A stretch of 64,000 nt of DNA. It comes from a virus. Its lineage: Duplodnaviria > Caudoviricetes. Positions 5,530 to 55,635 of the stretch are shown piece after piece; position 1 is the first letter of the stretch, and every line of letters starts with the position of its first letter. The stretch lies in IMG/VR virus record IMGVR_UViG_3300037400_001134, positions 1 through 64,000 of that record; one strand, written 5' to 3'. A program made the translations under genes and the position numbers. The notes beneath the pieces were generated by a model. The model had not been told where the DNA came from, made no database searches, and was given only the letters and a program-made list of their open reading frames with translations.

Positions 5530-5673
5530 ACCTCTACATATTAAATGCGACAAAATCGACTAGAGAAATCTGGTCGATTTTTTTTGTTTTTACATTCCTG
5601 TTGAATCTATATATAGGATATATTACCTTATACTTACAAACAACAACACAGAGTTCTGAAAGGAGAACACACT

Positions 5674-5886
5674 ATGGTAAAGATTACAAAAAGATGTTTC
5701 TGCTGTGGCAAAGAATCGTCATTGGAAATTACAGAAGAGGTTAATAAAATTTATCAGCAGTATTTACGAGGAGTAGGTTACATTCAAGATATTCCTCTTG
5801 ATGCAGATAAGAGGGAGTTCTTAAAGACTGGTATGTGTGTGCCTTGTCAGGAGATGATTTTTGCAGAGCCTGATGAAGATTTTTGA
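5674..5886 (+). CDS. Cys-motif hypothetical protein
   Basis: CFCCG...CVPC; AGGAG Shine-Dalgarno. Confidence 0.7.
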   Translation: MVKITKRCFCCGKESSLEITEEVNKIYQQYLRGVGYIQDIPLDADKREFLKTGMCVPCQEMIFAEPDEDF

Positions 5887-5887
5887 T

Positions 5888-5944
5888 ATTCCAGTTGATA
5901 AGATAGCATAGTCTGTGCTACCTTATCATTGTGAACAACAACAC
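5888..5944 (+). promoter_or_regulatory. Early promoter/leader cassette P1
   Basis: ATTCCAG-TTGATA-18 nt-(TG)TACCTT-ATCATTGTGAACAACAAC, then GAAAGGAG. Confidence 0.8.
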
Positions 5945-5968
5945 GCTATATGCGAAAGGAGAATTGAG

Positions 5969-6286
5969 ATGGAAATGTTATTTAGTGAAAGAGATTATGA
6001 GCCACTAAAAGAAGGAGAAACATACGAAGGTAAGTTCGTTATTATAGACCCTGCGTTCTTCAAACCCGAGTTCAGAAGTGCCAAGTATCAGTTGTTTTTA
6101 GCACAAGCTGGATTTGGATGTGACCCTAGTAAAATGGGGAATGCTGTGTTTGGCAAAGATTGTGAGGAGACTTATAGACAGGAGAGATACAACATTCTCG
6201 GTGTAGCTACAGATGAAGCCATAGAACAGTGGGAGAAAGTATATGGTATGAGTCGTGAAGTATTTAATAGAAAGGATGAGTATTGA
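5969..6286 (+). CDS. Hypothetical early protein
   Basis: True start ATG 5969 after GAAAGGAG; the track start at 5915 lies inside the promoter. Confidence 0.75.
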   Translation: MEMLFSERDYEPLKEGETYEGKFVIIDPAFFKPEFRSAKYQLFLAQAGFGCDPSKMGNAVFGKDCEETYRQERYNILGVATDEAIEQWEKVYGMSREVFNRKDEY

Positions 6287-6576
6287 TAATGGAAGAGTTT
6301 ACCACTACATTTAAACAGGACTTTGCAATAGCTGATGCATTTGGTGCATCAGCTATCAGAGATACCTATAATAGAGCATTTAATGAGTGGAAAGATGATT
6401 ACAGATATCTTACAGACCTCGCTATTGTATTAAATTATGCTTGCTGGAGATGGTATGAGAGAGGTAATAGTGAACTGAGTATGTTGTATGAGGAATTATT
6501 TTATAAGACACAGGATTATGCCTATGATACATTAAAAGGCGAAGAGTTTGACTATTATTGGAGAATGACTGATTGA
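6283..6576 (+). CDS. Hypothetical early protein
   Basis: ORF overlapping the upstream stop. Confidence 0.75.
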   Translation: MIMEEFTTTFKQDFAIADAFGASAIRDTYNRAFNEWKDDYRYLTDLAIVLNYACWRWYERGNSELSMLYEELFYKTQDYAYDTLKGEEFDYYWRMTD

Positions 6577-6588
6577 AAGGAGAACACC

Positions 6589-6759
6589 ATGAATACCGTA
6601 ATGTTTACAGATAGAAATGGAATAGAAAGAGAAGGTAAAATCCTCAGAGACTATATATCTTTTGAAGGCGAAATACGATATAGTATTGAGGATATCAATA
6701 CCCTTAGAGATTATAGATGTGTTAAGAAAAACGGTAAGTTTGTAGAGCTTGTGGTGTGA
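6589..6759 (+). CDS. Hypothetical early protein (56 aa), absent from the track
   Basis: GAAAGGAG then ATG; MNTVMFTDRNGIEREG...VELVV. Confidence 0.65.
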   Translation: MNTVMFTDRNGIEREGKILRDYISFEGEIRYSIEDINTLRDYRCVKKNGKFVELVV

Positions 6760-6772
6760 AAGGAGAATAAAA

Positions 6773-6940
6773 ATGGGAAGACCATATTCAAGAGATTATG
6801 AGAGCGAGTTATTGGATAAGTTAAGAGAGAATGGCATAACAGATGAGGATTTAGTATCTGTATTCCTGAACTATTTCAGTTCAGATGAAACTTGTGCGGC
6901 ATTGGAAGATGCTTGTGATACATATGATGTGGAATATTGA
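6773..6940 (+). CDS. Acidic hypothetical early protein
   Basis: GAAAGGAG then ATG 6773. Confidence 0.65.
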   Translation: MGRPYSRDYESELLDKLRENGITDEDLVSVFLNYFSSDETCAALEDACDTYDVEY

Positions 6941-6941
6941 T

Positions 6942-6996
6942 ACTCCTATTGTAAGGTAGCATTTTATATGCTACCTTATTTTTGTAAACAACAACA
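6942..6996 (+). promoter_or_regulatory. Early promoter/leader cassette P2 overlapped by a hairpin
   Basis: ACTCCTATTGTAA..TGCTACCTTATTTTTGTAAACAACAAC; inverted repeat AAGGTAGCAT/ATGCTACCTT. Confidence 0.8.
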
Positions 6997-7018
6997 CATA
7001 GAAGTGAAAGGAGAACAT

Positions 7019-7321
7019 ATGAGAAGAGTGGTTTATATTCCAGATGATATCGGTAATAACAGAAAATATGTAATAAAGGAAGAGTATAAAAAGTACGGTG
7101 TTTATGAGGAGATTAGCCCCAGCGGTTATAGAGTACACCAGTCTTGGCTAATACTTACTACCGAAGAGCATAAAATTCAGATACGGTCATTTATGAATCT
7201 ATGCTATGAAGAGGTATTGGATTATATTGATTTGAATGAACGTACTGGCAAATTTGAACTTAGAGCATTCCTTAGAAATGGAGTATTTGTAGTACATAAA
7301 AATGGAGATATGCGGATATGA
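7019..7321 (+). CDS. Hypothetical early protein
   Basis: ATG 7019 after GAAAGGAG. Confidence 0.7.
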   Translation: MRRVVYIPDDIGNNRKYVIKEEYKKYGVYEEISPSGYRVHQSWLILTTEEHKIQIRSFMNLCYEEVLDYIDLNERTGKFELRAFLRNGVFVVHKNGDMRI

Positions 7322-7662
7322 GTGATTTACATACAATGGAACTAAAAGATGGCAGAGTATTTACACCATTGAGTGATTATGATGTGCTTAATGAAATCTA
7401 TGATTATATGGGCAAGGATGTTCACGATTATATTGCCAGTCTCATCTTAGATACCAATGTAGAAAGAGAGATACAGGAGAAGAAGCTAAACTCTGATTTT
7501 AGGGCAATAGAATCAGAGAATGAGAGTTGGCATCAGTTTGTAGATGACCTGTCAGAAGAGGTGGAGCAGTTAAGGGAGAAGATTGAGGATAATAAGCTGA
7601 CAAAGGCTAAAATATCCATAGAACTATATAAAATACATGAAAAGATGAGAAAGGAGCTTTAA
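7318..7662 (+). CDS. Hypothetical early protein (coiled coil)
   Basis: ORF track; ATGA overlap. Confidence 0.7.
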   Translation: MSDLHTMELKDGRVFTPLSDYDVLNEIYDYMGKDVHDYIASLILDTNVEREIQEKKLNSDFRAIESENESWHQFVDDLSEEVEQLREKIEDNKLTKAKISIELYKIHEKMRKEL

Positions 7663-7663
7663 C

Positions 7664-7861
7664 ATGGAAGAATTACAACTTATGATACAGGCATTAGCCG
7701 GTACAATCGAGAATGAGATGGAAGTATTGAGAAAGATGAAGAGGGAGGGCAAAGAAGATACCAAGATGTATGCTCATAAGCTAGGAGAGATATCAGCATA
7801 TGAGGACACACTTAACATGGTGATGTTCAGGATCAACCAGCTTAATAAGAAAGGAGAATGA
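7664..7861 (+). CDS. Hypothetical early protein
   Basis: AAAGGAG Shine-Dalgarno. Confidence 0.7.
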   Translation: MEELQLMIQALAGTIENEMEVLRKMKREGKEDTKMYAHKLGEISAYEDTLNMVMFRINQLNKKGE

Positions 7862-7862
7862 T

Positions 7863-7910
7863 ATGTGGTTTCTGATATTATTTATCCTCTTTTGTGCAAT
7901 TATGCTGTGA
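7863..7910 (+). CDS. 15-aa hydrophobic micropeptide MWFLILFILFCAIML
   Basis: AAAGGAG Shine-Dalgarno directly upstream; fills the gap before P3. Confidence 0.4.
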   Translation: MWFLILFILFCAIML

Positions 7911-7912
7911 AC

Positions 7913-7966
7913 ATTCCTATTGAAGTGTCGTAAATCGTGTGTTACCTTATATTTGTAAACAACAAC
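7913..7966 (+). promoter_or_regulatory. Early promoter/leader cassette P3
   Basis: ATTCCTA-TTGAAG-17 nt-TACCTT-ATATTTGTAAACAACAAC. Confidence 0.82.
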
Positions 7967-7993
7967 AGACACGATTTATGAAAGGAGATACCT

Positions 7994-8236
7994 ATGAATA
8001 AGAAAGAGCAGGAGAAGTACAAAGATGCCAGACCACTTGGAGTGATGTGTCTCAGTAATTGGGGTGGCATAGAAGTTCTCGATATTGAGCATGGAATTGA
8101 TGACCATGTGATATGGAGAGAGAACTACGGTGAACCTAAGAAAGCTCACCGCTCAAAGATAGATTACAAACCCGAAAGACCCTGTTTCAGAGCTGGCAGA
8201 ATGACAGTTCATTTTGATGAGGTGATGAGAGTATGA
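7994..8236 (+). CDS. Hypothetical early protein
   Basis: GAAAGGAG Shine-Dalgarno. Confidence 0.75.
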   Translation: MNKKEQEKYKDARPLGVMCLSNWGGIEVLDIEHGIDDHVIWRENYGEPKKAHRSKIDYKPERPCFRAGRMTVHFDEVMRV

Positions 8237-8451
8237 CCGAATACATTATAGTAGGAGATATAAAGTCTTATAAGGATTGCCTCGTTACAGTAGTACATGG
8301 CAGTAGAAGTGATGCAGAGAAAGTGTTGGAGCGTATGCTTTACGCTCCAACAGATAATGACCTTATTCTTATGAAAGGTCATAAGAATCTGAGAATCAAA
8401 GAGGTAGAAGAAAAAGAACAGTGGTGGAATGACCCATTTTTAGCAACCTGA
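8233..8451 (+). CDS. Hypothetical early protein
   Basis: ORF track; coupled start. Confidence 0.7.
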   Translation: MTEYIIVGDIKSYKDCLVTVVHGSRSDAEKVLERMLYAPTDNDLILMKGHKNLRIKEVEEKEQWWNDPFLAT

Positions 8452-8466
8452 AAGGAGAAAGAGGTT

Positions 8467-8658
8467 ATGAAGTACAGAGTTATTTTCAAGGTAAGTTACA
8501 ATGAGGCATGGTTTGATTTTGACAACATTGAAGATGCTGGAGAGTTTGCAAAGACCATTCTCACACATCAGGCAGAAAGTCCTGATAGTAGGAAGAAGTC
8601 AACAGTAAGGATAGATGTTATAGACCCATCAGCAGAGGAGGAAAATGAAGATGACTAA
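8467..8658 (+). CDS. Hypothetical early protein
   Basis: GAGG Shine-Dalgarno. Confidence 0.7.
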   Translation: MKYRVIFKVSYNEAWFDFDNIEDAGEFAKTILTHQAESPDSRKKSTVRIDVIDPSAEEENEDD

Positions 8659-8821
8659 TCAGGAGTATATATGTTGTATCTGTGGAGAGAAGTTTACAGG
8701 ATGGGGTAATAACCCCTATCCTGTTGTAGATGATGAGACAGCCAGATGCTGTGATATGTGCAATCAGACAAGGGTATTACCAGCAAGATTGGCACAGATG
8801 TTTGGTAAGAAAGGAGAATAA
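8651..8821 (+). CDS. Cys-rich zinc-binding protein (56 aa), absent from the track
   Basis: CCICGEKFTGWGNNPYP...CCDMCNQTRVLPAR. Confidence 0.75.
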   Translation: MTNQEYICCICGEKFTGWGNNPYPVVDDETARCCDMCNQTRVLPARLAQMFGKKGE

Positions 8822-8824
8822 TTG

Positions 8825-9085
8825 ATGGCAGAATATAGTGTAGTAGGAAGTAGTAGTCGTGATAAGCTGGAGAAGATGGTAAAAGATGCGGGATATGTAA
8901 GTATGCGAGAGTTCGCCAGAGATGTAGGTATAAACATCTCTAACATTTACTCAAATCTTAATGGTAGATGGGATATATCCATTAAAAGAATGTTTAAGAT
9001 AGCCAATACTCTGAATGTGCCTATATTACAAGTCATAGAGGTATTTTATCCTGAAGAGTTGTCTGATAATATGGGAAGATTCTGA
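8825..9085 (+). CDS. XRE/Cro-type helix-turn-helix protein
   Basis: SMREFARDVGINISNIYSNLNG...FKIANTLNV. Confidence 0.8.
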   Translation: MAEYSVVGSSSRDKLEKMVKDAGYVSMREFARDVGINISNIYSNLNGRWDISIKRMFKIANTLNVPILQVIEVFYPEELSDNMGRF

Positions 9086-9140
9086 TTCCTGTTGAAATCA
9101 GCTAATGGCAATGTTACCTTATATTTGTAAACAACAACAC
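9085..9140 (+). promoter_or_regulatory. Early promoter/leader cassette P4
   Basis: ATTCCTG-TTGAAA-17 nt-(TG)TACCTT-ATATTTGTAAACAACAACAC. Confidence 0.85.
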
Positions 9141-9164
9141 GTTATATGTGAAAGGAGAACCAAA

Positions 9165-9485
9165 ATGAAAGCAACTAATGGAGAAATCAGAGAGTGGCTA
9201 AATAAACAGATTGAAGCCCTCAGAGTTATCAACGAAACCCTTGTTTTAGAAGAACATGAGGATAGTATTGATGACCTACTCAAAAATTTATCACGCAGAG
9301 AAAATATCCAGCTTGCCGCAGAGGCAGTAAGAGGTGTAGCTGACCGTCTTGACCTTGACTTGTATGTATCACATGATACAGGTAATACTGAAAACCCTTA
9401 TGAAGTAGCATTTATGTGGAAAGGCATTATGTTCTTTGGGTTAGAATCTGATGAAGAATATCATACAAGAGGACCAGTAGCATAA
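9165..9485 (+). CDS. Hypothetical early protein
   Basis: ATG 9165 after GAAAGGAG. Confidence 0.75.
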   Translation: MKATNGEIREWLNKQIEALRVINETLVLEEHEDSIDDLLKNLSRRENIQLAAEAVRGVADRLDLDLYVSHDTGNTENPYEVAFMWKGIMFFGLESDEEYHTRGPVA

Positions 9486-9501
9486 GCTACTGGTCTTTTT
9501 T
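9472..9501 (+). terminator. Intrinsic terminator
   Basis: GACCAGTAG-CATAAG-CTACTGGTC followed by a T-run. Confidence 0.8.
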
Positions 9502-9514
9502 AAGAGGTGAGATT

Positions 9515-9796
9515 ATGATGAAGTTTGTAACGACCTGTATAGATGAAAAGACTGGCTATACAATGGTGCTATCAGAAGTAAGCTATAATGTAGCTATGGA
9601 CTGGTTACAAAGGCAGTGCGAAAAGTATTTCAAGGAGATATTCAGAACCGAGAATAATGGTACAGATGATGTGTGGATATATGTAGGCACACCTAAGAAA
9701 GATATAAATCCTATGACAGGAGAGGTAGATGTGTGGTATACAAATCAAGTTGTATTCCACTATGATGAGTCAAGAGGATATTTGATGGAAGAATAA
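9515..9796 (+). CDS. Hypothetical early protein
   Basis: GAGGTG Shine-Dalgarno. Confidence 0.7.
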   Translation: MMKFVTTCIDEKTGYTMVLSEVSYNVAMDWLQRQCEKYFKEIFRTENNGTDDVWIYVGTPKKDINPMTGEVDVWYTNQVVFHYDESRGYLMEE

Positions 9797-9803
9797 TAAA
9801 GAT

Positions 9804-9844
9804 AAGCACTAGGAACTTTAACATTCCTAGTGCTTTTTCTTTTT
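9804..9844 (+). terminator. Intrinsic terminator whose 3' arm is also the upstream element of P5
   Basis: AAGCACTAGGAA-8 nt-TTCCTAGTGCTT followed by a T-run. Confidence 0.8.
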
Positions 9845-9874
9845 GGATATGTTACCTTATAATTGTAAACAACA
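9823..9874 (+). promoter_or_regulatory. Early promoter/leader cassette P5
   Basis: ATTCC begins 30 nt before (TG)TACCTT-ATAATTGTAAACAAC; weak -35. Confidence 0.7.
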
Positions 9875-9951
9875 GCAGAGAGTAAGTTTTACACCGCTGT
9901 GTATATCACCAGTGTAGATGCTGAAATCGCCACATATTGAAAGGAGAAGAT

Positions 9952-10269
9952 ATGATACTGAATGATGGATTTTACCCGTCAAAAGAGAGTGGGGTTGTGC
10001 TAGAGATGTTTGAGCATGAATGGACAAAACACCCAATGTCCGATAAATATGCGAAGGATATCGTTACTACCAGTAACAGTAATATTCAGACCTACTCTGA
10101 TGCCTTTATGTCAGAAATGGCGGGTGATGAAATATTTTTTGCAGACTGGATAAGATATAATGAGGGATTACTACCTTACATTAAGAAAGCCGCTGACACA
10201 GTGCATTGGCTACACAATGAAGGATATACAGATTACAAAGTAAATATGCAATCCGGGATAATCAAATGA
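9952..10269 (+). CDS. Hypothetical early protein
   Basis: ATG 9952 after GAAAGGAG. Confidence 0.7.
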   Translation: MILNDGFYPSKESGVVLEMFEHEWTKHPMSDKYAKDIVTTSNSNIQTYSDAFMSEMAGDEIFFADWIRYNEGLLPYIKKAADTVHWLHNEGYTDYKVNMQSGIIK

Positions 10270-10664
10270 TTATCCCTTATAATGGAAGGAGAATAGATAT
10301 GTCAACTATTATTAGATATGGAACAAAAGCAGGAGAAGAACTTGTAAGGGATATGAATTATAGACATCCTAAAGGAGAGACTCTTTATGATGTGTACGGT
10401 AAAGTTTCTTCAAAGAAGGCGAAAAGTTGGGAGAAAATCAGAGATGATTGCAACTACCTCAAAGGTAGACGCCTTCATATCATAGGAGCATCAAGTTATG
10501 GGTATTCCTGCATATATGCTTATCCTATATATGACCATAGAGATGAGAGCATTATATCCATGATGATTAGAAAGGAAACAAAGGCGAATACATACGAGAT
10601 GGAGATGCCTATAGAAGAGTACGATAAGAGGATAATACATAGTAGTACAAGGCGAATAAGATGA
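10266..10664 (+). CDS. Hypothetical early protein
   Basis: ORF track; ATGA overlap. Confidence 0.7.
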   Translation: MIIPYNGRRIDMSTIIRYGTKAGEELVRDMNYRHPKGETLYDVYGKVSSKKAKSWEKIRDDCNYLKGRRLHIIGASSYGYSCIYAYPIYDHRDESIISMMIRKETKANTYEMEMPIEEYDKRIIHSSTRRIR

Positions 10665-10671
10665 AATGTAG

Positions 10672-10707
10672 GCTACAGGAATTAAATGTTCCTGTAGCTA
10701 TTCTTTT
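10672..10707 (+). terminator. Intrinsic terminator whose 3' arm is also the upstream element of P6
   Basis: GCTACAGGAA-TTAAATG-TTCCTGTAGC-TATTCTTTT. Confidence 0.75.
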
Positions 10708-10740
10708 ACCTGTATGCTACCTTATTATTGTAAACAACAA
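10688..10740 (+). promoter_or_regulatory. Early promoter/leader cassette P6
   Basis: GTTCC begins 30 nt before (TG)TACCTT-ATTATTGTAAACAACAA. Confidence 0.75.
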
Positions 10741-10769
10741 ATACACATATGTACTGAAAGGAGTACCTT

Positions 10770-11051
10770 ATGAAGATTCAGATTATGGAAACAACAAACC
10801 CTATTTACAGAGTAGTTTTAGAGCATCCTGAGTATGGGATAGAGCGTCACGAAGTGGCTGTAGGGGGATATGACTATAACCCGTTTGATGGTGAAGATGC
10901 TTATGATGAGTATGTGGACACATTACTTACAATGTTAGAGGAGAAATACAACCCATATCATATTTGGCATGAGATGCACGTATACGCCGACTATTATATA
11001 GACGGTAAGATGTATACATCAGAGATTGTGCGAAAGGAAGATGAGGAATGA
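10770..11051 (+). CDS. Acidic hypothetical early protein
   Basis: GAAAGGAG Shine-Dalgarno. Confidence 0.75.
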   Translation: MKIQIMETTNPIYRVVLEHPEYGIERHEVAVGGYDYNPFDGEDAYDEYVDTLLTMLEEKYNPYHIWHEMHVYADYYIDGKMYTSEIVRKEDEE

Positions 11052-11347
11052 CCATATTTGATTATATCATAGAACATACTGCAACCGCATTAGAGGAAAG
11101 AAAAGAGCGGCTGATTAAGATGGATGCACCAGATATCCTTATAGATAATATAGTGGATGAGCTTATTCGCCTGTATCAAGGGGAGTTAATCTGTTTCGGT
11201 GATACCGAATTACTTGATGCAGAATTTAAAACCGTCATTCAGAAGAAAGGGCGAGGTGGTATACTGTACTACACATTTAATGGAGATATCAACTATTTCC
11301 CAAAAGCTAAATATGGTAGATTTGTAGCGAAAGGAGAAGTAAGATGA
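11048..11347 (+). CDS. Hypothetical early protein
   Basis: ORF track; coupled start. Confidence 0.7.
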   Translation: MTIFDYIIEHTATALEERKERLIKMDAPDILIDNIVDELIRLYQGELICFGDTELLDAEFKTVIQKKGRGGILYYTFNGDINYFPKAKYGRFVAKGEVR

Positions 11348-11556
11348 AAACTTATTTGGTAGCTATTAGAGATGTAAGAGGATTCACCATTATAGATAAT
11401 GAGGGATATGAATTAGAGTTTGACCTTAAAGAAGGCAGCCGTGTAAAGATATATGAACACGTAGAGACCTATAAAGACGAGATTACGGTTAAGTTGTTCA
11501 ATAATGAAGATATCGGAATAGTCAGCGCACAGGACTTCAAAATCGTTCAGGAGTAA
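11344..11556 (+). CDS. Hypothetical early protein
   Basis: ORF track; coupled start. Confidence 0.7.
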   Translation: MKTYLVAIRDVRGFTIIDNEGYELEFDLKEGSRVKIYEHVETYKDEITVKLFNNEDIGIVSAQDFKIVQE

Positions 11557-11570
11557 AGGAGAGAAGAGAT

Positions 11571-12083
11571 ATGATGAGGAAAGATGTAAGAAAAGTTAAT
11601 GGCAAGTTTCAGTTATTATTAGGTAAAAAGAATGATGCTACATATTGGCTGCAGAGAGCCCCATTCGACTGTGAATGGTATTGGGGTATAGGATATGTAG
11701 AGGGCTATAGAGGTAAAGGAAGTTCAGATAAGAACTGGAGAAGTCACCAACACTTTGATAGATTATTCTTTAATGGACCATCTGACTATAAAACCATGTT
11801 TGATAACTTCTTTGATGAGACCCCATTTACAGATAGAGAGGAGTGGCAGATATTAGAGCTTATGAAATCAGCATACACCTGCCGTGAATATTCAGATATG
11901 TTATATACAGGTGGGTCACATATATCAAGCACAGTAAAGGTTGAGGCGATAAAGAATGATACAGAGTATGAGAGAATAAATAAACAGGTAATTCCATCAA
12001 TACTCAATGAGCTATATAAAGTAATGTCGCCAGAAGATGTAAACATAGATATATTTCATAAAGTAAATCCCGTAGTGAGGTGA
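11571..12083 (+). CDS. Hypothetical early protein
   Basis: 170-aa ORF, AAGGAG Shine-Dalgarno. Confidence 0.8.
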   Translation: MMRKDVRKVNGKFQLLLGKKNDATYWLQRAPFDCEWYWGIGYVEGYRGKGSSDKNWRSHQHFDRLFFNGPSDYKTMFDNFFDETPFTDREEWQILELMKSAYTCREYSDMLYTGGSHISSTVKVEAIKNDTEYERINKQVIPSILNELYKVMSPEDVNIDIFHKVNPVVR

Positions 12084-12087
12084 GATT

Positions 12088-12243
12088 ATGATACACTGTG
12101 AGAACTGCCGCTATTATACCGAGAAATTCGACATAGATGATTGGACTGGTGAGTATTTTGATTTCTGTGAGTGCTCCGCATACTGTGAACCTATTGATGA
12201 TACAAATAAAACAGATTGTCCTGAATATATAGCATTGGGATAA
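12088..12243 (+). CDS. Cys-rich small protein (51 aa), absent from the track
   Basis: GAGGTG Shine-Dalgarno; MIHCENCRYY...CECSAYCE...CPEY. Confidence 0.6.
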   Translation: MIHCENCRYYTEKFDIDDWTGEYFDFCECSAYCEPIDDTNKTDCPEYIALG

Positions 12244-12340
12244 CAAATATGGCGACTTTCCAGCGTTTCCACTACATTTAATGATAAAAATATCAAGCGC
12301 ACAAGTGGAAGCGCTGGAATCGTCTGTAAATGAGTTGATT

Positions 12341-12397
12341 ATTCCTGTTGAATCACAGTAGCGGATATATTACCTTATTAGTGTAGAGAACAACAAC
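12341..12397 (+). promoter_or_regulatory. Early promoter/leader cassette P7
   Basis: ATTCCTG-TTGAAT-17 nt-TACCTT-ATTAGTGTAGAGAACAACAAC. Confidence 0.78.
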
Positions 12398-12423
12398 AGT
12401 TAGTTGAAAGGAGAAAACCTAAT

Positions 12424-12792
12424 ATGAAGAAGTTAACATATGAGAGTTCCGTAGCAGAGGTAAATAGAGTAGTAGCAGAGATTCGCCAGATTTGTGAGAG
12501 ATACAACTTCTGGAACAGAGAAATACGCCCTTACTCTTGGAGAATGACAGTCCGTGAGCTAGTAGAGAGTGAAGGATGGAATAAATATAAGGCTTATACC
12601 TTATCATCAAAAGCCGTCATTCGCCAAGAGATAAACGGTTTTGTAGATATTCTTGAACACTGGGTAGCATATGAGAATGAACCTATGGTCAAGATTCACT
12701 ATATAGCTGGTAGTAAAGTTGATATGATAGAGGAAGTACATGAAAGCCTTGCAGAGATATTCATTCAGGCACAGATGGCAGAGCTGGTGTAA
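12424..12792 (+). CDS. Hypothetical early protein
   Basis: GAAAGGAG Shine-Dalgarno. Confidence 0.75.
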   Translation: MKKLTYESSVAEVNRVVAEIRQICERYNFWNREIRPYSWRMTVRELVESEGWNKYKAYTLSSKAVIRQEINGFVDILEHWVAYENEPMVKIHYIAGSKVDMIEEVHESLAEIFIQAQMAELV

Positions 12793-12804
12793 ACCAGCTC
12801 TTTT
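12780..12804 (+). terminator. Intrinsic terminator
   Basis: GAGCTGGT-GTAA-ACCAGCTC-TTTT. Confidence 0.75.
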
Positions 12805-12806
12805 AC

Positions 12807-12860
12807 ATTCCTGTTGATAAGGTACTGCCTGTGCAGTACCTTATTATTGTAAACAGAAAC
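12807..12860 (+). promoter_or_regulatory. Early promoter/leader cassette P8 with a 12-bp inverted repeat
   Basis: ATTCCTG-TTGATA-17 nt-TACCTT; ATAAGGTACTGC-CTGT-GCAGTACCTTAT. Confidence 0.82.
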
Positions 12861-12886
12861 ACACATATGAAAGAGAGGACCCACAA

Positions 12887-13126
12887 ATGTTAATGATGTT
12901 AGAAGAAGTATTCCCGAGGCAGAATAGAATGAATGAGTATCCCATGGGGGAAGAGCAAGAGTTCCAGAGCATGAAAGAGTTTATAGACTGGAACATAGAG
13001 CAGATTGATGAAATCCTGAAAGATGCTCCAGAGGAGCAGATAACGAAAGACAAGCTGACCAGCGGTGAATATACAGTCTATGAAAAAGATGGAATAATCT
13101 ATGTAAGAGTGGAGGTAGAAGCATGA
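12887..13126 (+). CDS. Acidic hypothetical early protein
   Basis: GAGAGGA Shine-Dalgarno. Confidence 0.7.
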   Translation: MLMMLEEVFPRQNRMNEYPMGEEQEFQSMKEFIDWNIEQIDEILKDAPEEQITKDKLTSGEYTVYEKDGIIYVRVEVEA

Positions 13127-13308
13127 AAGTTGCAGAATTACTTGGAGCCATAGGAGAAAATCAAGATTACTATATTGTGACCGCTGATAGAAGGCCTGAA
13201 GTAATAGATGTGAAAACGGCGGTAGAACATGATGCGAATGTTTTAGGAATTGTAGCAGTAAGAGAAAACCTTATAAGGATAGAAACTAATTTCAAGTGGT
13301 ATTTATGA
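13123..13308 (+). CDS. Hypothetical early protein
   Basis: GGAGG Shine-Dalgarno. Confidence 0.65.
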   Translation: MKVAELLGAIGENQDYYIVTADRRPEVIDVKTAVEHDANVLGIVAVRENLIRIETNFKWYL

Positions 13309-13322
13309 GAGGAGAATAGCAA

Positions 13323-13532
13323 ATGATAGTAGTAAAGCCAGTAAGAGGAAATCATGTTATAGAGGTCACCGATTTTGGTAAATCAATGTATGGGGGTTGG
13401 TACTTAAACTTCTATGACCCTACATACGATAAGTATGACGGCATAAGAAGAGATACACTCCGTGAATTATGTGCGTGGTTAGGTGTAAGTAGGACAGCCT
13501 TAACTAGAGATGTAAGGAGATTAGATAACTAA
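13323..13532 (+). CDS. Hypothetical early protein
   Basis: GAGGAG Shine-Dalgarno. Confidence 0.7.
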   Translation: MIVVKPVRGNHVIEVTDFGKSMYGGWYLNFYDPTYDKYDGIRRDTLRELCAWLGVSRTALTRDVRRLDN

Positions 13533-13533
13533 T

Positions 13534-13588
13534 ATTCCAGTTGAAAGGGTACTGCATGAGCAGTACCCTATAATTGTAGACAACAACA
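13534..13588 (+). promoter_or_regulatory. Early promoter/leader cassette P9 with an inverted repeat
   Basis: ATTCCAG-TTGAAA-17 nt-TACCCT; AGGGTACTGC-ATGA-GCAGTACCCT. Confidence 0.8.
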
Positions 13589-13615
13589 CACACATATGCG
13601 AAAGGAGATACCGAT

Positions 13616-13876
13616 ATGCAGAGAAGAAAATCATTATCCGAGAAGGATATCAGAACAGTTTTAGCCATCATTGAGAGCTAACGTGAACAGAACCATTATA
13701 ACTATGAGGAGATGAACAGAAATATGGGCAGCCTTACAATCGAAGAGATGATGGCGCTAAATAAAAAGCTAGAAGATTGGTACCATAAAGATGATGTAGT
13801 AGATGAACTTGAGGATGTAGATATGGATGAATATAGGGAATCCTATAATGATTACATCCATTCATATATCTATTGA
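13616..13876 (+). pseudogene. Early ORF interrupted by an in-frame TAA at 13679-13681
   Basis: Strong Shine-Dalgarno and ATG 13616; the frame stays open after the TAA until TGA 13874-13876. Confidence 0.55.
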
Positions 13877-15102: not shown

Positions 15103-15155
15103 AAACCTGTTGAATGGTTATAGGGGCTAGAGTACCATAAAATAAAAAACAGCAC
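15103..15155 (+). promoter_or_regulatory. Early promoter/leader cassette P10 (variant)
   Basis: AAACCTG-TTGAAT-17 nt-TACCAT; leader CAGCACACACATGAAAGAGAGG. Confidence 0.7.
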
Positions 15156-15179
15156 ACACATGAAAGAGAGGAAACCAAA

Positions 15180-15401
15180 ATGACAAAAGCACAGAGATGG
15201 GACCATTTAGTAAAGAGATTTGAGAGCTTCACCGAATTACAGAGAAGGGACCTAGATGTAGAGAAGTGGGATGATGCTATAAACAAGATGTACGGATGGA
15301 TAATCGCCGCATCAGAGTTCAATCCTGATTTAGAAGATGATATATCAACCCTTTGGACAGAGACTTATAATAGGGAGTTTAAGCAGAGGTATATGAAGTA
15401 A
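15180..15401 (+). CDS. Hypothetical early protein
   Basis: GAGAGGA Shine-Dalgarno; own promoter and terminator. Confidence 0.75.
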   Translation: MTKAQRWDHLVKRFESFTELQRRDLDVEKWDDAINKMYGWIIAASEFNPDLEDDISTLWTETYNREFKQRYMK

Positions 15402-15673: not shown

Positions 15674-15915
15674 GAATATACATAAAAATGATAGATTTAT
15701 GTAAAAAGTGTATATCTACTATATAATGCAAAAAATTGAAAACTTTTTAAATTTGTTGTTGTAAACAATATCAAGTTATGATAATATGATATTGAGCTTC
15801 AATGAAGCGTGAGCTTTGAAGCGTGTTCTACATATTGCACTTTGACAAACATAGACACTTACGTGTCTATCATATGGAAACGTAAATATCACAATATGAA
15901 ACGGAGACAAGTATC

Positions 15916-16497
15916 ATGGAAAAAACAACTATTTTTAGCAACTATTCACTCAAGCAAGCAACATTCGATAACACAAACAAGCGTGTTGCAATGACAGACA
16001 AAGAGCTTGCAACGCTCAAAGCACTTTGCAAGACAAAAACGTTTGGTCTTGTATCGCTAATTGATGATATCGACAATATTGCAACGTTCAATGGTGACTA
16101 CGATTGTAAACTAGCTCAAAGCGGAAACGCAAAAGAGCACACATTAGTTTCGATATGGAGTCGTAACGCTGTAAAGCACGTTACAAAAAAGAGCGATTAT
16201 CGTGATTTTGGGGTTCGTTTTCACGTAGACAAGCTAGCAAAGCTTTATAGCAATAAAGACTTTGCAAAGCTGATAAAAGATAGCAGCGTGCAAGTATACT
16301 CACATAAAGATGGATTAGAAATCAGATTTACGTTTAACACGTTGTCAGATGCTATCAAGTTTATAGCTGATATCGACAACGCAACAAAAGAGACTAGCAA
16401 AGCAAAAGAGCAAAAGAGCAAAGCAAAAGAGACTAAAGCAAAGCAAAGCAAAACAAAGTCTAAAGAGACTACAACAGAAAAGAGCATCACAGCATGA
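15916..16497 (+). CDS. Proline-free 193-aa protein with a Lys/Ala-rich C-terminal tail, function unknown
   Basis: CGGAG Shine-Dalgarno, own terminator, no Pro, tail KETSKAKEQKSKAKETKAKQSKTKSKE. Confidence 0.85.
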   Translation: MEKTTIFSNYSLKQATFDNTNKRVAMTDKELATLKALCKTKTFGLVSLIDDIDNIATFNGDYDCKLAQSGNAKEHTLVSIWSRNAVKHVTKKSDYRDFGVRFHVDKLAKLYSNKDFAKLIKDSSVQVYSHKDGLEIRFTFNTLSDAIKFIADIDNATKETSKAKEQKSKAKETKAKQSKTKSKETTTEKSITA

Positions 16498-23163: not shown

Positions 23164-23370
23164 GGGTGAGATGTTGATTTTGTCAATTCTGCCCTCCTAC
23201 TGCCCACAGTAGTACACCCCGTTCTATTGTGGGCGCTAGATAATAACTCGATATGAGATTATTATAAATAAGTCTTGTAGTCGGACATTTAAACGGCTAC
23301 ACATTCCAGTGTAGAAAGTGACTACACATTTAAACAATAAACTGATATAAGAATGTAGAAGGAGAAAAGT
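23164..23370 (+). ncRNA. Structured 5' leader upstream of the GP20 scaffold gene
   Basis: Four tandem hairpins at about 23202-34, 23240-66, 23276-302 and 23309-27; ATTTAAAC occurs twice. Confidence 0.5.
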
Positions 23371-24042
23371 ATGTTACTAAAAGAAATTTTTGACAAGGCT
23401 ACTTCCGAGAACAAGTCTTTAACTTGGGAGGAGTTTGAAGCACTTGCGAAAGAAAACAAGGCAAAGTTTACTGACTTATCAGAAGGTAAGTATGTAGACA
23501 GACAGAAGTATGAGGATGACCTTGCAAAGAAGGACACAGAGATTACCACTCTGAATGACACAATCACAACTAGAAACAATGATTTAGAATCATTGAAGGT
23601 CAAATTAGCTGATGCAGGTAATGATGCAGGGAAGTTGGAAGAACTCAACAGTAATCTAACTGCTCTACAGGCCAAATATGATGCTGACACCGCAGCATTA
23701 CAGACCAAGTTATCAGCACAGGCATATGAATTTGCGGTTCGTGATTTTGCCGGTAAACAGAAATTCTCTAGTGAAGCCGCTAAACGTGATTTCACACACT
23801 CTATGATAAAGAAAAATCTTCCTATGGAAGATGGTGTAATAATGGGAGCAGATGATTATATGAAAGTATATGCTAAAGCAAATGCCGATGCATTTATTCA
23901 GAAAGATACTACTCCAAAGACACCTGCTCCAGAGTTTTCAGGACCAACACCTGGTGGAAAACAGACTGGTGCTAAAATGTCATTATCAGAGATGATGGCA
24001 AAGAAAAATGAAAATCCAGATTTTGTAATAAGTTTTGACTAA
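23371..24042 (+). CDS. Capsid scaffolding protein (Phage_GP20-like)
   Basis: DLSEGKYVDRQKY, coiled coil, position before the capsid gene. Confidence 0.88.
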   Translation: MLLKEIFDKATSENKSLTWEEFEALAKENKAKFTDLSEGKYVDRQKYEDDLAKKDTEITTLNDTITTRNNDLESLKVKLADAGNDAGKLEELNSNLTALQAKYDADTAALQTKLSAQAYEFAVRDFAGKQKFSSEAAKRDFTHSMIKKNLPMEDGVIMGADDYMKVYAKANADAFIQKDTTPKTPAPEFSGPTPGGKQTGAKMSLSEMMAKKNENPDFVISFD

Positions 24043-50450: not shown

Positions 50451-50678
50451 ATGGCTAAATATGAAGTTAAAGGAAAAACTACAAAGATTATTGCTACTTC
50501 AAGATGTGCAGTAAAGATTAAGGATAATTATTACACAACCGAACTTTCAGCAGAAAGAGTATTACCAGAGAGTGATGATGTAGACCTCAATAAGGAGTAT
50601 GAAGATTTATTCAACTCCATAAATGATGAGGTTGATAGACAGATGACAGATATTATAAACACATTTGCAAGGAAATAA
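50451..50678 (+). CDS. Hypothetical protein
   Basis: GAGGAGG Shine-Dalgarno. Confidence 0.7.
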   Translation: MAKYEVKGKTTKIIATSRCAVKIKDNYYTTELSAERVLPESDDVDLNKEYEDLFNSINDEVDRQMTDIINTFARK

Positions 50679-50718
50679 GTTCCTGTTTACACGCTAATCT
50701 AATCATGTTATAGTATGT
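50679..50718 (+). promoter_or_regulatory. Promoter of the candidate sRNA
   Basis: GTTCCTG-TTTACA-17 nt-(TG)TATAGT-ATGT. Confidence 0.8.
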
Positions 50719-50720
50719 AT

Positions 50721-50829
50721 TGTAAAGAGCAAACAAGTTCTCATGTTTCTTGTTTTTACTTCTTTCATATTGTGTATGTTGTTTCTGTTGTTAGAAAGTA
50801 GCGTGAGCCTAGTGCTTGCGCTTCTTTCT
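50721..50829 (+). ncRNA. Candidate trans-acting antisense sRNA targeting early mRNA leaders
   Basis: Own promoter, 5' hairpin, 33-nt U/G-rich core complementary to AACAAC..ATATGAAAG leaders, 3' terminator hairpin, no + strand ORF. Confidence 0.62.
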
Positions 50830-50832
50830 GTA

Positions 50833-50861
50833 TTGACAAATGTATATAAATATGTTAATGT
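50833..50861 (+). promoter_or_regulatory. Promoter for the replication initiator leader
   Basis: TTGACA-17 nt-(TG)TAATGT. Confidence 0.6.
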
Positions 50862-50993
50862 ATATTTAGTCATTAAGACTTGATGCACATATTGAAAAGG
50901 AGTAGCTACCTTTAAAAATTTGTGCTACAATGAATAAGCCAGTTAATGTGCGCATACGTTGACTGACAATGTATAAACACATAATAACTGGCA

Positions 50994-51041
50994 AAGAGCT
51001 TGATATGATGAAGATGCGCCTTCTGAGTATCGAGCTTTTTT
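50994..51041 (+). terminator. Terminator/attenuator in the leader of the replication initiator gene
   Basis: AAGAGCTTGATA...TATCGAGCTTTT-TT. Confidence 0.6.
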
Positions 51042-51077
51042 ATTGCAAGAAAAGAAGATTGTTGGGAGGATAATAAA

Positions 51078-52004
51078 ATGAAGGACACTAATTATTTTTC
51101 TGTTCAAGCTTGGATGGTTACAAAATTAAATCTAAAGGGTGCAGAGCGTGATATCTACGCTATTCTATATGGATTCACACAGGATAATGAAAGCGAATGT
51201 AAATGTAGTTATACATATATGTCCACTATAACAGGGTATACAAAACGAGCAATAATGGATGCTATGGACAGATTATTAGCTAAAAATCTTATAGTAAAGT
51301 CTGGTTCAGATTCAGATAGAGATATGAGAAACATCTATAAATGTAACTTTGATTATATTGATGGAGTATTAAGAGGGGGTGAAGTAACTTCACCACTAGG
51401 GGGTGAAGTAACTTCACCACTTGATGCACTAGGGGGTGAAGTAACTTCACCACATAATATAAGATATATAAATAATATCCATAATAAAAGCACCGGAGAC
51501 GGTGCTCTTTCTAAAAATCATTCTCAGGTTTATAAGAAAAGAGAAAGTCTAAATGATGATTTAGAGAGTGGAAAAGATATAGACAAACAAAAGTCTGATA
51601 AAAGAAAATCTCCTAAAGACAAATTCAAAGATGAATGTTTAGATATTATAGAAAAAGAGTATTCAGATGAAACAAAGGATTTACTTATAGAATATTTTGA
51701 TTTTGTTACGGCAGTTCCAGAAGATAAAAGTAATTTGTGTAAGCGTGTAAAAACAGTAAAGCAGTGGAGACATAAACTAGATAGATTAGATGATTTAGTT
51801 AAAGACGGCTATGATTGTAGAAAACTCATACAACAGAGTTTAGATAAAAAGCAGTATGTATTTTATCCATTACAATCAGTTCAGCAATATAAAGCAAAAA
51901 GAGGAGGCGAAACTTTATGTGATGAAATAGTTACTACAAATGTTGAAGAAGCACAAAGATTATGGGATGAAGCTAAAAATAGCGGAAAAGGAGAATATTG
52001 CTGA
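51078..52004 (+). CDS. Phage replication initiator (N-terminal winged HTH)
   Basis: LKGAERDIYAILYGFTQ...YMSTITGYTKRAIMDAMDRLLAKNLI; internal iterons; upstream of a DnaC-like gene. Confidence 0.85.
   Translation: MKDTNYFSVQAWMVTKLNLKGAERDIYAILYGFTQDNESECKCSYTYMSTITGYTKRAIMDAMDRLLAKNLIVKSGSDSDRDMRNIYKCNFDYIDGVLRGGEVTSPLGGEVTSPLDALGGEVTSPHNIRYINNIHNKSTGDGALSKNHSQVYKKRESLNDDLESGKDIDKQKSDKRKSPKDKFKDECLDIIEKEYSDETKDLLIEYFDFVTAVPEDKSNLCKRVKTVKQWRHKLDRLDDLVKDGYDCRKLIQQSLDKKQYVFYPLQSVQQYKAKRGGETLCDEIVTTNVEEAQRLWDEAKNSGKGEYC
51374..51453 (+). repeat. Three 23-bp palindromic iterons (probable origin)
   Basis: AGGGGGTGAAGTAACTTCACCAC at 51374, 51398 and 51431. Confidence 0.9.
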
Positions 52005-54972: not shown

Positions 54973-55635
54973 ATGAGCAAATATTTAATTCACACCTGTG
55001 AGAAGAGGAAGTGGTATGTTGATGAATATTTAGTGCCATCCATGATTAAACAAGGTATAGATAACACAAACATACTAATCTATAATGATGAACACAAGGA
55101 AGGCTGTTTAAAATCATTTATCTCATCATCTGAAATGATAACTACTTTAAGACAAGGGGTGTGGCATTTACAAGATGATATTATTATAAGCTCAAATTTT
55201 AAAAAGGTGACAGAAGAGTTTGATAAGGGTATAGTATGTGGCTTCTGTAGCTATTATAGTGAGGATGCTCCTATAGGAATTAGACCGATAAATGATATGT
55301 GGTATTCATTTCCGTGCATAAGGATACCGAATGTAGTTCTTAAAGGATTTGTGAAATGGATAAATTCTCAGAATACACAAAATAAATACAGGGTATATAT
55401 AGAACAGAACAAGTTTGTGGATTTATTGTTTAGAGAATATGTTACTACTATATATGAAGATAAACTAATACATAATCTGTGCCCTAATATCGTAGATAAT
55501 GTTGATTACTTATTAGGTGGCTCAACTATAAATTATATAAGAGACAAACAGCCTGTATCATTATATTTTCAAGAGAAAAATCTTATAGAGGAATTAAAAC
55601 ATTCCTTAGAAAATACTATTTACAACAAAAAATAA
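54973..55635 (+). CDS. GT-A fold glycosyltransferase
   Basis: VWHLQDDIII acidic motif; WYSFPCIRIP. Confidence 0.65.
   Translation: MSKYLIHTCEKRKWYVDEYLVPSMIKQGIDNTNILIYNDEHKEGCLKSFISSSEMITTLRQGVWHLQDDIIISSNFKKVTEEFDKGIVCGFCSYYSEDAPIGIRPINDMWYSFPCIRIPNVVLKGFVKWINSQNTQNKYRVYIEQNKFVDLLFREYVTTIYEDKLIHNLCPNIVDNVDYLLGGSTINYIRDKQPVSLYFQEKNLIEELKHSLENTIYNKK

Follow-up and report, generated by a model that had tools for sequence, protein, structure and literature searches.

The question raised by the locus studied here is whether an ORF-less stretch in an intergenic gap of an uncultured phage encodes a small RNA (sRNA) antisense to the leader that is common to many of the phage's own operons, as was proposed in a first-pass annotation of the sequence. 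The window, i.e., the whole stretch of DNA that was analysed, has a length of 64,000 nucleotides and is the first 64 kb of an IMG/VR record of 75,058 bp (IMGVR_UViG_3300037400_001134) that is rated complete. Of the public runs listed with this DNA none is recorded as RNA, and the only one containing the complete stretch is a bovine gut metagenome, from which the phage may originate. All the genes in the window are on the + strand and have strong Firmicutes-type ribosome-binding sites, and the portal protein shows 30-39% identity to those of Clostridium, Faecalibacterium and other Firmicutes siphophages. Neither a tyrosine integrase nor a serine recombinase or integrase was found in this genome rated complete, and thus the phage, a siphophage of the Firmicutes type, is probably virulent. 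For the same reason the immunity or carrier-state role that had been offered as one function of the sRNA is unlikely.

The unit is situated in a 400-nt intergenic gap, with all the flanking genes on the + strand. Immediately on its 5' side is the gene of a 75-aa protein (50451-50678, +), which serves as the synteny anchor in alignment A3, the unit following its stop codon in the relatives. On the 3' side is a 308-aa replication-initiator gene (51078-52004), followed by DnaC-like, DnaB and primase genes. It is noted that the 75-aa protein has no Pfam family; its structural model, consisting of a beta-hairpin and a long helix, is confident (pLDDT 85) but gives no significant fold match in the PDB, and a role as RNA chaperone was rejected.

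The whole unit, from promoter to terminator, spans 50686-50835 on the + strand, as delimited by promoter scores, per-sequence folds and an ORF check, and its four parts are found where the first-pass annotation had placed them. The promoter (50686-50714) has the -35 element TTTACA (50686-91), a 17-nt spacer and the extended -10 element TGTTATAGT, in which the TG-extended TATAGT occupies 50709-14; in the promoter scan of the window it scores 10/12. It is followed by a 5' stem-loop (50721-50758) and then by a U/G-rich, conserved core of about 34 nt (50759-50792), which was taken to be single-stranded on the basis of the folds and was characterized by its conservation, its pairing statistics and its duplexes. 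The 5' end of the core is the anti-Shine-Dalgarno-like block CTTCTTTCA, and the remainder is the complement of the A/C-rich leader body of the cassettes described below. At the 3' end is an intrinsic terminator (50792-50835), having a hairpin of 7+9 bp (50792-50830) and a T-rich tail, within which the terminator scan separately flags 50800-50822 as terminator-like. In the window the U tract of this terminator is interrupted, so that some transcripts could continue into the next unit. One detail departs from the description of the core as unpaired: in the fold computed for the window, the 8 nt at the start of the core are able to pair with the outer stem of the 5' hairpin, and the anti-Shine-Dalgarno block can partly pair intramolecularly both in this fold and in those of three relatives; the accessibility expected of a seed region is therefore only partial in the window's own fold.

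The unit contains no credible ORF, the short frames being either non-conserved or beginning 5' of the likely transcription start, and among the relatives compared no conserved ORF is present on either strand. This agrees with the original description of an ORF-less unit on the + strand with its own promoter and terminator. The core 33-mer has no second copy at up to 3 mismatches, and thus the complementarity between the core and the leaders is a gapped one. A blastn search of the sRNA region against GenBank phages gave no match. In the scan of the window with Rfam 15 at gathering scores the only match is the GP20-a RNA motif (23268-23368, +, 68 bits, above its gathering score), which is located in the structural module just 5' of the gene at 23371, and a permissive Rfam scan of 50600-51150 gave only chance-level matches to unrelated families.

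Relatives of the locus were gathered via the flanking proteins, by a profile search, by a pattern scan of IMG/VR (which gave 22 matches, with 17 by chance) and by a stepwise walk on one ENA contig. The unit was found in 11 contigs of related phages, each time immediately 3' of the 75-aa gene and 5' of the replication-initiator gene. The promoter (the -35, the 17-nt spacing and the extended -10; alignment A1) and the core are kept in 11/11 homologs. The 5' hairpin is formed in every relative, with folding free energies of -4 to -15 kcal/mol and with differing stem sequences, and the terminator stems are fully paired in the 11 homologs despite the turnover of their sequences (dG -19 to -27), with T runs on the + strand; in most relatives the terminator is strong, with stems of 12-18 bp and T5-T8. 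A profile built from the 11 units detects a single copy in each genome (E 1e-12 to 1e-17). It is noted that MAFFT followed by RNAalifold, applied to four whole units, yielded no consensus structure, the divergence of the hairpins being too great for an alignment, and the per-sequence folds were used instead. A conserved core between two hairpins that have both turned over and yet still pair is the hallmark of a structured non-coding element that is transcribed. The possibility that the locus is a degenerate cassette read from the minus strand was discarded: on the minus strand neither a conserved ORF nor the -35/-10 arrangement of a cassette is present, and in 11/11 homologs it is the + strand that bears the promoter and the long T-run. 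In a more distant relative (L035) the gap after the homolog of the 75-aa gene has no recognisable sRNA unit; ARAGORN detects a tRNA-Met gene there, at 673-747.

The proposed targets belong to ten repeated promoter-leader cassettes of the window, which are 35-45 kb away from the sRNA unit. The cassette promoter has a -35 context resembling TTCCTGTTGA, a 17-nt spacer and an unusual -10 element, TACCTT, and the leader of about 35 nt begins with TGTAAAC, continues with an A/C-rich body and ends with GAAAGGAG. The cassettes are visibly homogenised inside one genome, and five other genomes (G001, G002, G003, G7, which is an ENA contig, and G8) each possess a set of cassettes with genome-specific variants of the leader. 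The -10 element differs among the genomes, being TACCTT in the window (5624-13564), TATCCT or TAACCT in G003, TACCAT or TACCCT in G8 and TATAGT-like in G002, and the -35 context is constant across the genomes and common to the cassettes and the sRNA promoter; such differing -10 elements with a constant -35 context may point to a phage-specific promoter-recognition factor.

The core can pair with almost the entire leader, from about +3 through the Shine-Dalgarno sequence, forming 23-28 pairs with energies of -21.9 to -27.3 kcal/mol, as computed with a duplex method that ignores the accessibility of the target. This bears out the claim that the core is antisense to the common cassette leader, and the individual matches that had been pointed out in the leaders termed P3 and P8 and in that of the 'island' gene are present. 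The predicted target sites, all on the + strand, are as follows. In cassette 1 the site is 5637-5666 (start codon at 5674; -22.7 kcal/mol, 23 pairs, reaching the Shine-Dalgarno sequence), in cassette 2 it is 5932-5962 (start 5969; -21.9, 24 pairs), in cassette 3 it is 6985-7014 (start 7019; -24.0, 23 pairs) and in cassette 4, the top-ranked of 168 start regions, it is 7957-7988 (start 7994; -27.3, 27 pairs). The sites at 9128-9158 in cassette 5 (start 9165; -25.5, 25 pairs), 10731-10764 in cassette 7 (start 10770; -23.0, 26 pairs), 12383-12414 in cassette 8 (start 12424; -21.9, 23 pairs) and 12851-12876 in cassette 9 (start 12887; -25.9, 24 pairs) are of the same kind, as is that at 13576-13608 in cassette 10 (-26.7, 27 pairs), which precedes a first ORF of 21 codons with its start at 13616. 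Two further sites are in the cassette-like leader of the gene starting at 15180 (15140-15169; -21.9, 26 pairs) and in the leader of a monocistronic gene encoding a 193-aa protein (15916-16497), where the site 15873-15907 (-26.5, 28 pairs) ranks 2/168.

For the approximately 30 small genes of the cassettes no function was recognised, and the labels 'early' and 'host takeover' that had been attached to them are therefore guesses. Two observations on individual cassettes are added here. The first ORF of cassette 10 (13616-13681, +, MQRRKSLSEKD...) has opening codons that are identical in G003, and its product may be a micropeptide or else a leader peptide. Per genome, one cassette shows in place of the short leader a far longer one, which is conserved across the phages, begins with ...AGAGTAAG... 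and has no nearby Shine-Dalgarno sequence (9853-9940, +, in the window; 46591 in G001; 4605 in G002, flipped; 6944 in G8, flipped); this long leader may be a further structured RNA or contain a small ORF.

Now the point to be decided is whether the complementarity exceeds what a U/G-rich RNA would show with any message. When a sliding duplex scan is run over the entire + strand, several sites in coding sequence equal the leaders in score, since a U/G-rich RNA pairs widely via G-U, and hence a ranking by raw energy over all positions is uninformative and the specificity must rest on position and on controls. In the window genome the cassette leaders rank 1, 3, 5, 7, 9, 10, 12 and 13 of 168 start regions; the ranks are 1-4, 8-10 and 35 of 172 in G001, 2-6, 8-10 and 12 of 179 in G8, and 1, 2, 3, 5, 6, 11 and 15 of 129 in the distant bioreactor phage G7. 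Altogether, the leaders hold most of the top ranks among the start regions in six genomes, and in four genomes their difference from the other start regions has Mann-Whitney p values of 1e-4 to 1e-6, with the other start regions still reaching about -14 to -15 kcal/mol with the core.

The control with shuffled cores that the first-pass annotation had suggested gives a clear result. In four genomes the mean energies with the own leaders are -24.3, -27.1, -22.4 and -18.0, compared with -15.7, -10.5, -14.5 and -7.3 for dinucleotide-shuffled cores, and the observed mean is reached by 0/300 shuffled cores in each genome, meaning that the pairing with the leaders is highly non-random. With the anti-Shine-Dalgarno block kept fixed and only the remainder shuffled, at most 5/500 cores match the observed value, and the same is true when the leader body without the Shine-Dalgarno sequence is used as the target. 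The core of G7 has diverged, yet 0/500 shuffled cores equal its pairing with its own leaders. The relation is also detected by searches that contain no pairing model: in G001 a leader HMM reaches the sRNA core on the opposite strand over its full length (E 0.004-0.03), while it fails to reach the core in G000 and G002, and the sRNA HMM has, after the sRNA itself, its best matches in the opposite-strand sequence of leaders (E 0.005 and 0.028).

If the sRNA acts on the leaders, it would be expected that the two change together from phage to phage. With four genomes, a comparison of own with swapped combinations shows no diagonal preference, and with five genomes the effect is weak (7/120). With six genomes, in the 6x6 matrix of sRNAs and leader sets from which the row and column effects were removed, the true pairing is equalled by 7/720 permutations, the comparison resting on related genomes, each with paralogous leaders, and hence on few independent observations. 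The co-variation of core and leaders, put forward originally as a check, is thus clear only in the largest comparison and, because the genomes are related and the leaders paralogous, is supportive rather than decisive. Two particular cases illustrate it. The leaders of G8 begin differently from the others, and the matching complement is present in the G8 core. Between G000 and G001 the sRNA has changed in step with the leader of the 193-aa gene, with energies of -26.5 and -28.1 for the own combinations and of -22.4 and -18.4 for the swapped ones. A homolog of the 193-aa gene in L045, a short contig from the sample of G002, was set aside, its leader being different and having no link to any sRNA.

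Based on these results, it is reasonably probable that the unit encodes a trans-acting antisense sRNA that blocks the translation of the first gene in about ten operons and of one monocistronic gene. This reading has its basis in the computed anatomy, conservation, non-random complementarity in six genomes and genome-specific fit, against which the other explanations of the locus have to be weighed. It could be argued that the RNA is real and acts in another way, i.e., by processing or stabilising the leaders (for example through cleavage by a double-strand RNase), as a general mimic of the anti-Shine-Dalgarno sequence, or in the control of the replication region. Indeed, the block with the strongest conservation is like the 3' end of the 16S rRNA in its pairing partner, the same Shine-Dalgarno sequence is present on most of the phage genes, whose start regions reach the above-mentioned -14 to -15 kcal/mol, and the unit always adjoins a structured leader and a replication-initiator gene with iterons. 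By contrast, the part of the core outside the anti-Shine-Dalgarno block is also specifically ordered to fit the leader bodies, the leaders outrank the other start regions in the six genomes, and the core's complementarity to the RNA next to it has not been kept among the relatives. We therefore regard such another action of the RNA as rather unlikely.

The locus might also be thought to matter only as DNA, being an inverted copy of a cassette leader that is kept similar by gene conversion or through a DNA-binding protein recognising both places, with the promoter and the terminator serving the flanking genes. The homogenisation of the cassettes within a genome implies some concerted evolution, which could in principle include an inverted copy, and the sRNA promoter has the -35 context and the first transcribed bases of the cassettes. 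If this explanation were true, however, it would be difficult to see why the similarity takes in the Shine-Dalgarno sequence, which is a signal at the level of RNA, why the minus strand shows neither the -35/-10 arrangement of a cassette nor a conserved ORF, and why the core has been kept while the flanking hairpins have wholly turned over and still pair, as for a transcript. Moreover, the terminator is directly 5' of a second full promoter, so that the sole product of the first promoter would be the sRNA unit itself. A DNA-level origin is thus improbable. Still more improbable in our estimate is a purely cis-acting 5' leader or attenuator with no target in trans, for which transcripts would pass a weak terminator and enter the second unit as well as the replication genes. 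The interrupted U tract in the window is in its favour, as are the facts that the next unit is likewise a leader ending in a terminator and that tandem promoters are common before replication genes; but the terminator of most relatives is, as described above, a strong one, an independent promoter is present 3' of the terminator, and the match to leaders 35-45 kb away, which tracks each genome, would be left unexplained.

With the trans-acting antisense sRNA as the preferred reading, the following course of events can be proposed. The host RNA polymerase would start at the strong extended -10 promoter and stop at the intrinsic terminator, giving an RNA of about 110 nt, the two hairpins of which would protect its ends and hold the unpaired core of about 34 nt between them. 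By covering nearly the whole leader including the ribosome-binding site, the core would prevent each operon's first gene from being translated. We infer that the candidate sRNA is made and that it represses rather than activates its targets. The first-pass annotation spoke of about 30 genes being shut off; the direct pairing extends to the first genes of about ten operons and to the gene at 15916, and the rest could be reached only indirectly, because the pairing is limited to these first genes and translational coupling or mRNA decay would be needed. Many of the downstream genes in the cassette operons overlap stop-to-start, and their expression, together with the stability of the mRNA, would probably follow that of the first gene, by translational coupling or by the decay of the untranslated mRNA, so that about 30 small genes could be affected. 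In this way one RNA would probably turn down many phage genes at once.

As to the timing, the assignment of the sRNA promoter to a second class is in keeping with the recurrence of its -10 type 5' of genes of the replication module, at 50833 (the replication-initiator leader) and at 55619. The common promoter type suggests that the sRNA would accumulate together with the products of the replication genes and would then shut the cassettes down, from which we infer an action at the transition from early to middle expression.

Temporal control in virulent phages is usually attributed to proteins such as sigma factors, anti-sigma factors, modifiers of the RNA polymerase and nucleases. If the above reading is true, a whole temporal class of genes would be shut off, or put under a threshold control, post-transcriptionally and with no protein repressor. 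A single sRNA reading the common leader of about ten operons would be a cheap, protein-free off-switch for the class, and would explain why the leaders stay so uniform. It is quite conceivable, and is suggested here tentatively, that in some phages the 5' leaders of a whole block of operons have been made uniform and are matched by a single sRNA that co-evolves with them; the family studied here would then be the representative from Firmicutes phages of a wider class that has not been described. Such an sRNA would also represent a natural design for the knock-down of multiple genes, would provide a handle for annotating the 'early' regulons of uncultured phages, and would give reason to seek anti-leader RNAs wherever phage genomes have cloned promoter-leader cassettes.

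It is useful to compare the unit with known systems. The OOP RNA of lambda and the sar RNA of P22 are short cis-encoded antisense RNAs, each with a promoter of its own and an intrinsic terminator at its end, which down-regulate a phage message by pairing; they are transcribed opposite to the target and are perfectly complementary to it. Here, by contrast, the unit and all the genes are on the + strand, the unit overlaps no target, lying within the 400-nt intergenic region, and the predicted pairing is imperfect and in trans. RNAIII of S. aureus and RoxS of B. subtilis are trans-acting sRNAs of Firmicutes that occlude the Shine-Dalgarno sequence via pyrimidine-rich loops. The unit resembles them in having its own promoter, an intrinsic terminator, an exposed pyrimidine-rich seed and predicted pairing with the Shine-Dalgarno sequences of several messages, whereas those RNAs are cellular and use short seeds on unrelated targets and the core studied here is the complement of nearly a whole leader, directed at the phage's own paralogous cassettes. 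Among the types compared, it is the trans-encoded sRNAs to which this candidate sRNA corresponds, being non-coding with its own promoter and terminator and with a conserved seed that is complementary to its predicted targets beyond chance.

Of the known systems, the c4 RNA of phages P1 and P7 comes nearest; it pairs around the ribosome-binding site of ant and blocks its translation (reviewed in PMC12197685). The likeness consists in a phage-encoded small RNA having exposed complementary segments and a predicted pairing at the ribosome-binding site of a phage message. The differences are that c4 acts on a single message, ant, in its own immunity operon in a temperate phage, while the unit studied here has its own promoter and terminator in a genome with no integrase, and its predicted targets are about eleven transcripts with a standardised leader at a distance of 35-45 kb. 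Being transcribed from its own promoter, remote from its targets and outside any temperate immunity region, it also differs from the C4 type as defined by location in the same operon as a single target, and the C4 family model gave no match in the two Rfam scans, that of the window at gathering scores and the permissive one of 50600-51150. A search of the full-text literature found no paper on a phage sRNA directed against a shared leader of the phage's own operons.

Finally, we note that the gap contains a second RNA, separate from the sRNA. A second promoter (TTGACA-17-TGTTAATGT, 50833-61) is followed by a conserved, pseudoknotted RNA of 183 nt, the two together spanning 50833-51044 on the + strand, and the RNA ends in an intrinsic terminator 30 nt 5' of the ribosome-binding site of the replication-initiator gene. 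In eight homologs it has five helices and a pseudoknot, comprising 44 pairs with 91% of the cells paired; 18 pairs have changed on both sides, and the covariation is 0.41 versus 0.25 for shuffled alignments (0/500). The 6-bp pseudoknot connects an internal loop (about 50956-63) with the apical loop of the terminator (about 51027-32), and 6/6 of its pairs co-vary. This RNA, which has no Rfam match, is a candidate for a new cis-regulatory leader of the phage replication genes. Within the 308-aa initiator-like gene downstream of it there are three direct repeats of about 24-32 nt (51370-51458, +), each of which includes a short inverted repeat and which encode a recurring GGEVTSP motif; these repeats look like the iterons of a replication origin.
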